Source: a virus. From it: DNA of 64,000 bases. Positions 48,060 through 48,700 of this stretch are shown here, in pieces. The position numbers and the translations under genes are program-made. The notes beneath the pieces were generated by a model. That model did no database searches. It saw nothing but the letters and a program-made list of their open reading frames with translations, and had not been told where the DNA came from. The stretch is from positions 96,001 to 160,000 of IMG/VR virus record IMGVR_UViG_3300045988_176782, one strand, 5' to 3'. Position 1 is the stretch's first letter, and the number at the start of each line of letters is the position of its first letter.

Positions 48060-48088
48060 TTGACAAAAATAAAAAATTAAATTATAAT
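48060..48088 (+). promoter_or_regulatory. sigma70/SigA-type promoter driving the ~600-nt RNA
   Basis: TTGACA-17-TATAAT. Confidence 0.7.
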
Positions 48089-48100
48089 AAATCCATAATA

Positions 48101-48700
48101 AAGAAAAGATATTTTTCTTTACTATATGATACCTCGGTGAAGAGCATTTGGCCAATGTGCCGAGAACAAACGGAAGATAGCCAGCTCCATATGATGGATA
48201 CATTATATGCCTGAGCCGCGAAAACAGTGATGTTTAGCGATAGGAGAAAAGACTCCAATATCAAGTTTGTGTGCTTTGTATTTCGCAATTTAACGCATAA
48301 TTTCTCTGGAGAACACAATAGAAAGCAGGATGAATAGTCCTGCCGAATCCAAGGCGCCGTTAGCTGGTGACTGTCGGGGAAAAGATACGGCCTTGGAAAC
48401 AACCACAAGTTCTTTTGTGATGAAACACAGAAATGTGATATAACAGAGGTTTGTAGTCTGAGTAGCTCAACACAGCGAACAAAAAGATGATACAAATTGG
48501 CTATTGTTTCTAATTTGCTGAATGGCTTGGGTGAAAAGTGCGAGTAGTCAATCTCGTTAGAGCGTTGTTTGGATAAAGAAGTCAAGGAGTAGCTAACTTG
48601 GCTCAGCCTTTATCTTCTCTATGGCGGAATAAGATTGAAGAAATCACAAAGTAGGGCGAAGGTCCATCAGTTAGTAGAGAAAAATATCTTTTCTTTTTTT
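48101..48700 (+). ncRNA. large structured non-coding RNA (~600 nt), family unassigned
   Basis: No coding frame; 18-bp end-to-end helix 48101-48118 / 48678-48695 then T-run; many internal hairpins incl. CTCGG/CCGAG, GCAGGA/TCCTGC, CCAAGGC/GCCTTGG, CACA-GAAA-TGTG. Confidence 0.6.

Follow-up and report, generated by a model that had tools for sequence, protein, structure and literature searches.

What is encoded by some 600 bases of phage DNA that follow a perfect promoter and hold no plausible protein? The question arises in a 64,000-nucleotide stretch of viral DNA (the window; positions 96,001 to 160,000 of IMG/VR record IMGVR_UViG_3300045988_176782), part of a 167,278-bp metagenomic contig (ENA ERZ27229731) from an uncultivated phage. 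Genes in the window include phage tail genes and those for a radical SAM protein, a PurZ-like enzyme, and an RNA ligase. A first-pass annotation, made by eye from the letters, had proposed that this stretch specifies a large structured RNA, possibly ROOL or GOLLD, possibly a new class. The signals on which that proposal was built are borne out: the TTGACA-17-TATAAT promoter matches the consensus at 12/12 positions (48060-48088); residues 48101-48118 are the exact reverse complement of 48678-48695 (18 nt) and belong to a longer repeat of 34 nt; eight T in a row (48694-48701) come after the inverted repeat; and the longest + strand open reading frame reaches 37 codons in the standard code, or 68 with TAG as sense.

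The most direct answer comes from comparison with known RNA families. A scan of the whole window with Rfam 15 places ROOL (RF03087) on 48109-48684 (+) with 295.8 bits (E 6.3e-67), three times the gathering score of 99.1; the match covers model positions 1-574 of 574 and is thus full length, not truncated. A second scan of 46500-49000 with permissive filters (E <= 1) returned ROOL as the sole match inside the RNA region. GOLLD, HEARO, OLE, raiA, and group I and II introns, which the first-pass annotation had listed beside ROOL as families to search with Infernal, gave no match, either in the whole window at gathering thresholds or in 46500-49000 at E <= 1. Columns that are invariant across 51 family sequences include CTGAATG, GTGAAA, AGTAGC, AATA(G), and the CAG of GCTCAG, and all are present in the window. 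The copy has its own peculiarities: a small optional hairpin is missing (model positions ~445-462 deleted), in a region that varies across the family in the 51-sequence alignment; 10 nt are inserted in the P7 region; and 26 of the 149 projected Rfam pairs are non-canonical, partly from a one-base register difference in two helices.

Relatives of the RNA were found among uncultivated viruses. BLAST searches of GenBank phages with the RNA (distant mode) and with 40000-60000 (near mode) returned nothing similar, which indicates a phage without a cultured relative in that set. Among IMG/VR viral contigs, a first search pattern, AGTAGGNCGAAGGNCCA, was too narrow (7 loci); a second, drawn from two invariant ROOL motifs, yielded 119 stretches, in which iterated nhmmer identified about 65 ROOL-like sequences. 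Thirteen homolog loci spanning the diversity were re-scored with Rfam, and 13/13 are ROOL, at 272-350 bits. Two relatives, L001 (a 165.6-kb contig) and L004 (168.2 kb), share 97% identity with the window across the RNA plus promoter; one visible difference is a compensatory change from A-U to G-C that involves both strands of P17.

An alignment of the window copy with 50 full-length viral relatives (A2; MAFFT, no structural guidance, 45% mean column identity) allowed the pairing to be examined column by column. Projected through the window row, the Rfam structure has 70.8% of its cells paired vs 52.0% when shuffled, and a covariation score of 0.513 vs 0.194; the observed values are reached by 0/500 shuffles, and slid controls stay at or below 49.9%. 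De novo folding of A2 with RNAalifold finds P1, the long-range helices, and the terminal hairpins again; of its 94 pairs, 88 show compensatory changes. Two projected helices (A2 columns 272-296/807-837 and 642-646/655-659, with 40-49% pairing there) are one base out of register relative to the homolog support, so a refined structure was assembled from the RNAalifold register and the well-supported Rfam helices. It has 91.6% of cells paired, vs 62.6% shuffled and at most 44% with partners slid; because this structure derives partly from A2 itself, the 91.6% is optimistic, while the count of independent pair types is unaffected. For 48095-48702, the minimum free energy of folding comes to -181.1 kcal/mol (shuffles, -147.0 +/- 5.4; z = -6.3). 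The + strand folds 27 kcal/mol more stably than the - strand. Covariation among homologs, which the first-pass annotation had named as a check on its proposal, is strong in the 51-sequence alignment.

Every feature of ROOL membership that can be examined in sequence is found in the 48109-48684 RNA. Given the end-to-end match, the covarying helices, and the invariant motifs, we read the ~600-base non-coding stretch, with high confidence, as a complete and well-conserved gene for ROOL RNA (RF03087). It adds one more member to a known family; of the options originally put forward, ROOL stands, and a new class is excluded.

The fold is best described against env-120, a ROOL from cow rumen for which a cryo-EM structure is available (PDB 9MDS; Kretsch et al., Nature 2025, PMC12286853). 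The closing stem P1 covaries, with 80.8-96.1% of cells paired among the 51 sequences. Six local helices had been picked out by eye at the outset, and all exist as sequence. Five of them (CTCGG/CCGAG, GCAGGA/TCCTGC, CCAAGGC/GCCTTGG, CACA-GAAA-TGTG, and CGAG/CTCG) belong to the conserved fold; the sixth, CACAA/TTGTG (48404/48415), lies outside it, and in the family that stretch instead has the kissing partner ACCA (48402-48405), along with the 3' strand of a long-range helix. The hairpin with the GAAA tetraloop corresponds to a GNRA-type loop of env-120, in which A366 provides the A-minor contact B2. Likewise, the loop UAGUCAAU is a conserved UAAUCAAU-type loop and the counterpart of the env-120 loop holding A505, which makes the stacking contact B5. 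The variable linker sits inside the P14 region, and the part of the Rfam model that matches it is a loop. Coordinates of these elements and of the neighbouring genes are collected in Table 1.

Table 1. Features of the ROOL locus and its surroundings (window coordinates).
Feature	Position	Strand	Remarks
Sigma-70-type promoter	48060-48088	+	TTGACA 48060-48065, 17-nt A-rich spacer, TATAAT 48083-48088; 12/12 match
ROOL RNA	48109-48684	+	Full-length RF03087 match
P1 closing stem, 5' arm	48097-48130	+	Inverted repeat with 48666-48699; reaches beyond the Rfam model
CTCGG/CCGAG helix enclosing the L3a hairpin	48133-48164	+	98.0% of cells paired; CG/UA and AU/GC exchanges
L3a loop GGCCA, one side of contact B1	48150-48154	+	Mapped from env-120
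Loop UGGU, one side of contact B4	48365-48368	+	Counterpart of env-120 G307-A310
ACCA, partner of the UGGU loop in B4	48402-48405	+	Counterpart of env-120 U332-C335
Hairpin with GAAA tetraloop (48430-48433)	48425-48438	+	Stem covaries, 93.3% of cells paired
Variable linker, 47 nt, no conserved sequence or structure	48471-48517	+	A2 columns 510-618 gap-rich, unconserved
Invariant CUGAAUG, then GCU	48518-48527	+	CTGAATG invariant in 51/51 sequences
UGGCU, pairs with the L3a loop in B1	48523-48527	+	Just after invariant CUGAAU
Five-bp hairpin with loop UAGUCAAU	48540-48557	+	98.4% of cells paired; 4/5 pairs changed on both sides
P17/P18 arm	48571-48617	+	94.1-95.6% of cells paired
L18 loop UAGCUA, GC step of contact B6 within the AGCU palindrome	48590-48595	+	env-120 G565:C566
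P19 hairpin GGGC-GAAG-GUCC, beside P1	48652-48666	+	99.5% of cells paired; 4/4 pairs compensated
P1 closing stem, 3' arm	48666-48699	+	34 nt, 88% complementarity to 48097-48130
Run of eight T, probable transcript end (inferred)	48694-48701	+	From sequence; overlaps the end of P1
54-codon ORF	48722-48886		Good ribosome-binding site; 21 nt past the T-run
tRNA, anticodon CUA, 90 nt, long variable arm, A73	46742-46831	+	Own perfect promoter at 46580
GIY-YIG/NUMOD endonuclease	46970-47815	+	Five internal stops, all TAG; directly downstream of tRNA-CUA
abiF RNA motif RF03085	47840-47876	+	49.9 bits vs threshold 37; compensatory stem changes
YqeY	49049-49498
RNA ligase	49515-50843
tRNA array	55229-57962 and 60755
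Nine perfect promoters	409, 29914, 31583, 33757, 46580, 48060, 48877, 55119, 58342	+	TTGACA-N16-18-TATAAT

Family membership raises the further question of whether the RNA can form the particle known from other ROOLs. By cryo-EM, env-120 is a protein-free homo-octameric hollow cage, ~28 nm across, with its variable linker disordered inside the cage (Kretsch et al. 2025, PMC12286853). The inter-chain contact residues are given in Supplementary Table 2 of that paper and include B1 (A38-C41:G465-U468), B4 (G307-A310:U332-C335), and B6 (G565:C566 in L18) (PMC12286853). The env-120 sequence taken from the supplementary PDF has 650 nt vs 659 and its numbering drifts, so the contacts were mapped by local sequence context. 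At B1, GGCCA faces UGGCU in the window where env-120 has AAUC:GAUU, both complementary; L001 and L004 have AGCCA:UGGCU, fully Watson-Crick. Across the alignment, the 4 bp of B1 are fully paired in 43 of 51 sequences, and 193/204 cells pair vs 168.3 +/- 2.5 with shuffled partners, a value that 0/2000 shuffles reach; the key column pair is CG in 26 sequences and UA in 20. At B4, UGGU:ACCA in the window takes the place of GGUA:UACC in env-120, again complementary in both, and the exact complement of the loop is found in 46/51 sequences, vs 15.4 +/- 2.5 with shuffled partners. The L18 loop, self-pairing in B6, reads UAGCUA in the window, with a 4-nt AGCU palindrome, and UUGCUAA in env-120. The base-paired contacts B1, B4, and B6 and the GAAA loop of B2 are thus all intact in the window copy. 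With every base-paired bridge of the solved cage available, homology points to the same octamer, and assembly of the window RNA into such a cage is likely.

Comparison with the structurally characterized RNAs puts this copy in context. Besides the positions and complementarity of B1, B4, and B6 and the GAAA loop of B2, the window copy and env-120 have in common an overall fold in which P1 closes the molecule, the motifs GUGAAGA, GGAUAC, ACAAUAGA, GAGUAGC, CUGAAUG, GUGAAA, UCAAUC, GCUCAG, and GAAUA, a GGCGAAGGUCC-type P19 hairpin, a variable internal linker, and a phage setting near tRNAs. The window copy also differs from env-120: it is shorter (about 605 nt vs 659), lacks the one small hairpin, which belongs to the 3' domain, carries the 10-nt insertion in P7, and has a longer P1, extended to 34 bp. 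A second study, of two bacterial ROOLs from Enterococcus faecalis and Firmicutes bacterium CAG:227, describes the same cage architecture for these members of the family (Ling et al., Nature 2025, via PMC12515178). In that account, the octameric cages are 28 nm across and assemble through strand exchange, which produces a quaternary kissing loop, and the disordered internal loop is dispensable (PMC12515178). Unlike the window copy, these two are bacterial or prophage copies, and the likeness to them is drawn at the level of description in that account. GOLLD is comparable as a large ornate RNA of phages or prophages that lies near tRNA islands, assembles into a cage of RNA alone, and is not known to have a function; it differs in being unrelated in sequence and fold, longer than 800 nt, and a 14-mer, and has no Rfam match in the window.

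The signals that would govern expression connect the RNA to other genes of the phage. The promoter at 48060 is identical in L001 and L004. Its spacer, AAAATAAAAAATTAAAT, is nearly the same at 46580, upstream of tRNA-CUA, and at 55119, upstream of the tRNA array. Perfect TTGACA-N16-18-TATAAT sites number nine in the window, all on the + strand, where shuffles expect 0.13, and an A-rich spacer (TTGACAAAAATAAAAAATT...) is common to several of them. The nine look to be a single class of phage promoters, with the suppressor tRNA, ROOL, and the tRNA array under their control. The use of the same promoter type at 46580, 48060, and 55119 suggests common timing, with ROOL probably made at the same time as the suppressor tRNA and the tRNA array. 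Transcription is predicted to start near 48095, ~7 nt past the -10 element and two bases before the P1 arm; host RNA polymerase would make an RNA of ~605 nt, from ~48095 to ~48700. The T-run that had been noticed at the 3' end has parallels in the family: at 24/51 ROOL loci, a stretch of 8 bases with 6 or more T lies no further than 40 nt from P1. Here the stem that precedes it is long-range and AU-rich, unlike the GC-rich hairpin of a classic terminator, so termination may be leaky into the 54-codon ORF at 48722-48886.

Other ROOL loci appear to be expressed in more than one way. A strong promoter-like site (at least 10 of 12 positions) lies within 70 nt upstream at 16 of the 51 loci, and the window ROOL, with its own promoter, shows this stand-alone arrangement. 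Another 16/51 have a tRNA gene within 60 nt of an RNA end, some within ~10 nt; copies with a tRNA gene so close to an end would be freed by tRNA processing. One subgroup (L093, L028, L057, L067, L025, L023, and L020) has a tRNA within ~10 nt of at least one end and no promoter-like site, with tRNAs close to both ends in L023 and L020 and, by Rfam, in L093. In the phages of this subgroup, ROOL is probably cut from a tRNA precursor transcript.

The surroundings are rich in RNA-related genes. The window has 13 tRNA genes, and tRNAs are carried by 42 of the 50 other ROOL loci; tRNA-rich surroundings are the typical ROOL neighbourhood. The tRNA with anticodon CUA, together with in-frame TAGs in several frames, points to partial TAG recoding in this phage. 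In addition to the GIY-YIG gene, long frames with in-frame TAGs include 18459-20681, 44391-45032, and 58665-59969; suppressor tRNAs (CUA or UUA) occur near ROOL at 7/50 other viral loci. Within the tRNA array, tRNA-like sequences at 55903-56018 (+) and 56992-57065 (+) are called by Rfam and not by ARAGORN; one of them is 116 nt, has a counterpart in L004, and may carry an insertion. A tRNA-Trp at 55229-55302 (+) is called by ARAGORN alone. Just past the last tRNA gene, the product of 61345-62853 (+), 502 aa long, matches phrog_850, 'RNA-binding protein' (E 1e-124), as well as Pfam DUF2828/DUF7788.

Between the GIY-YIG gene and the ROOL promoter sits an abiF RNA motif, which is kept in L001 (6862-6898, -) and L004 (13166-13202, -). 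The abiF-motif RNA is an antitoxin that neutralizes the AbiF toxin (PMC12373285), and no AbiF/Abi_2 protein to partner it was found among the 30 window proteins scanned with Pfam; given these two points, the orphan motif could give the phage a decoy antitoxin to counter an AbiF defence of the host. A short way upstream of the promoter of the tRNA array, an IceA-like gene (nicking/restriction endonuclease family) overlaps an N6/N4 DNA methylase gene (53882-55139, +), and the two may be a phage-borne restriction-modification pair. Elsewhere, 36720-37853 (+) encodes an adenylosuccinate-synthetase-like protein with a phrog_1211 match (PurZ-type, E 2e-51), and genes for a nucleoside deoxyribosyltransferase and a dCMP deaminase lie at 38381-39967; together these enzymes hint at modified bases (2-aminoadenine) in the phage DNA.

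Could the stretch encode a protein after all, or an RNA of some other kind? On the - strand, a 167-aa ORF at 48082-48585 lies in a 175-codon stop-free run that beats all 300 shuffles (mean 70, sd 16). That frame is broken in the 97%-identical relatives, where the longest run is 105 codons (L001) or 115 (L004), and on this ground the ORF was rejected as a gene. The longest stop-free run has a median of 73 codons among the 51 homologs when read in the standard code, and of 99 when TAG is sense; each value is what shuffles lead one to expect. The 167-aa product has no Pfam match, substitutions track base-pairing and not codon constraints, and every neighbouring gene, like each of the nine consensus promoters, lies on the + strand, leaving an antisense protein with negligible probability. 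A frame conserved once TAG is read as sense had been named in the first-pass annotation as an observation that would tell against an RNA; it was looked for in the 51 homologs and is absent, in either code, and with a + strand maximum of 68 codons the TAG-sense reading was also rejected. The idea that the locus belongs to a different or new class of large RNA (GOLLD, HEARO, OLE, raiA, a group I or II intron, or one not yet described), resembling ROOL in size and setting only, draws on the fact that size and a phage/tRNA setting would suit GOLLD too; ROOL is the sole match and all family-invariant motifs are present, so that this is hardly conceivable.

Two further alternatives accept the RNA as ROOL and dispute its function. 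That it is a decaying, non-functional remnant might be suggested by the one missing hairpin and by a score (295.8 bits) in the lower half of the relatives' 272-350 range. The absent hairpin falls in a region variable across the family, and the copy is full length with a perfect promoter, keeps all invariant columns, and has complementary sequences at all inter-subunit contacts; moreover, three independent contigs maintain the RNA at 97% identity with a compensatory change. Decay is very unlikely on this evidence. It is also highly improbable that the main role of the RNA is a cis one, in which it serves the 54-codon ORF as a long structured leader or attenuator and is not a free particle. That ORF begins 21 nt past the T-run with a good ribosome-binding site (AAAGGAGA), and no consensus promoter lies between 48088 and the ORF; some read-through from ROOL is therefore plausible, and it is compatible with a free ROOL particle as the main product. 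ROOL settings elsewhere differ, with tRNA genes within 60 nt of an end in 16/51 loci and within ~10 nt in some (L093, L028, and L023), and the solved ROOL structures are of a protein-free particle.

If the window ROOL behaves as do env-120 and the Enterococcus and Firmicutes ROOLs, its RNA would fold into a flat monomer, eight copies of which would come together on their own, with no protein involved, as a hollow cage ~28 nm across. The cage would be held together by the kissing loops B1 and B4, the self-pairing L18 loop of B6, and the GAAA A-minor contact B2, with the 47-nt variable linker directed into its cavity. ROOL has been known since 2017, and its cage structure was solved in 2025; to our knowledge, the biological role of the cage is known for no ROOL. 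Because tRNAs, a suppressor tRNA, an RNA ligase, and YqeY lie in the neighbourhood, our best guess, a speculative one, is that it would be an abundant phage RNA particle in a tRNA/RNA-repair programme, acting for example as a scaffold or decoy. A bolder reading, which we regard as unlikely, makes ROOL part of a co-regulated 'RNA module' in which the cage works with these elements in the takeover of translation. It draws on the near-identical promoter that ROOL shares with the suppressor tRNA and the tRNA array, and on the orphan abiF RNA, RNA ligase, and YqeY as neighbours. Under such a scheme, the cage might protect phage tRNAs or gather them at high concentration, or it might act as a sponge for host defence nucleases that target RNA; if true, this would be the first function for ROOL.

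As a discovery the window ROOL is ordinary, since it adds no new kind of RNA. Its value lies in offering a clean natural example for learning what ROOL does: a copy with its own consensus promoter, a defined end, and intact cage contacts, in a large phage that apparently recodes TAG, with a suppressor tRNA, a tRNA array, and RNA-repair genes as its neighbours. For the family as a whole, covariation at B1 and B4 in an independent set of 51 viral sequences supports the published view that the inter-subunit contacts are under selection.
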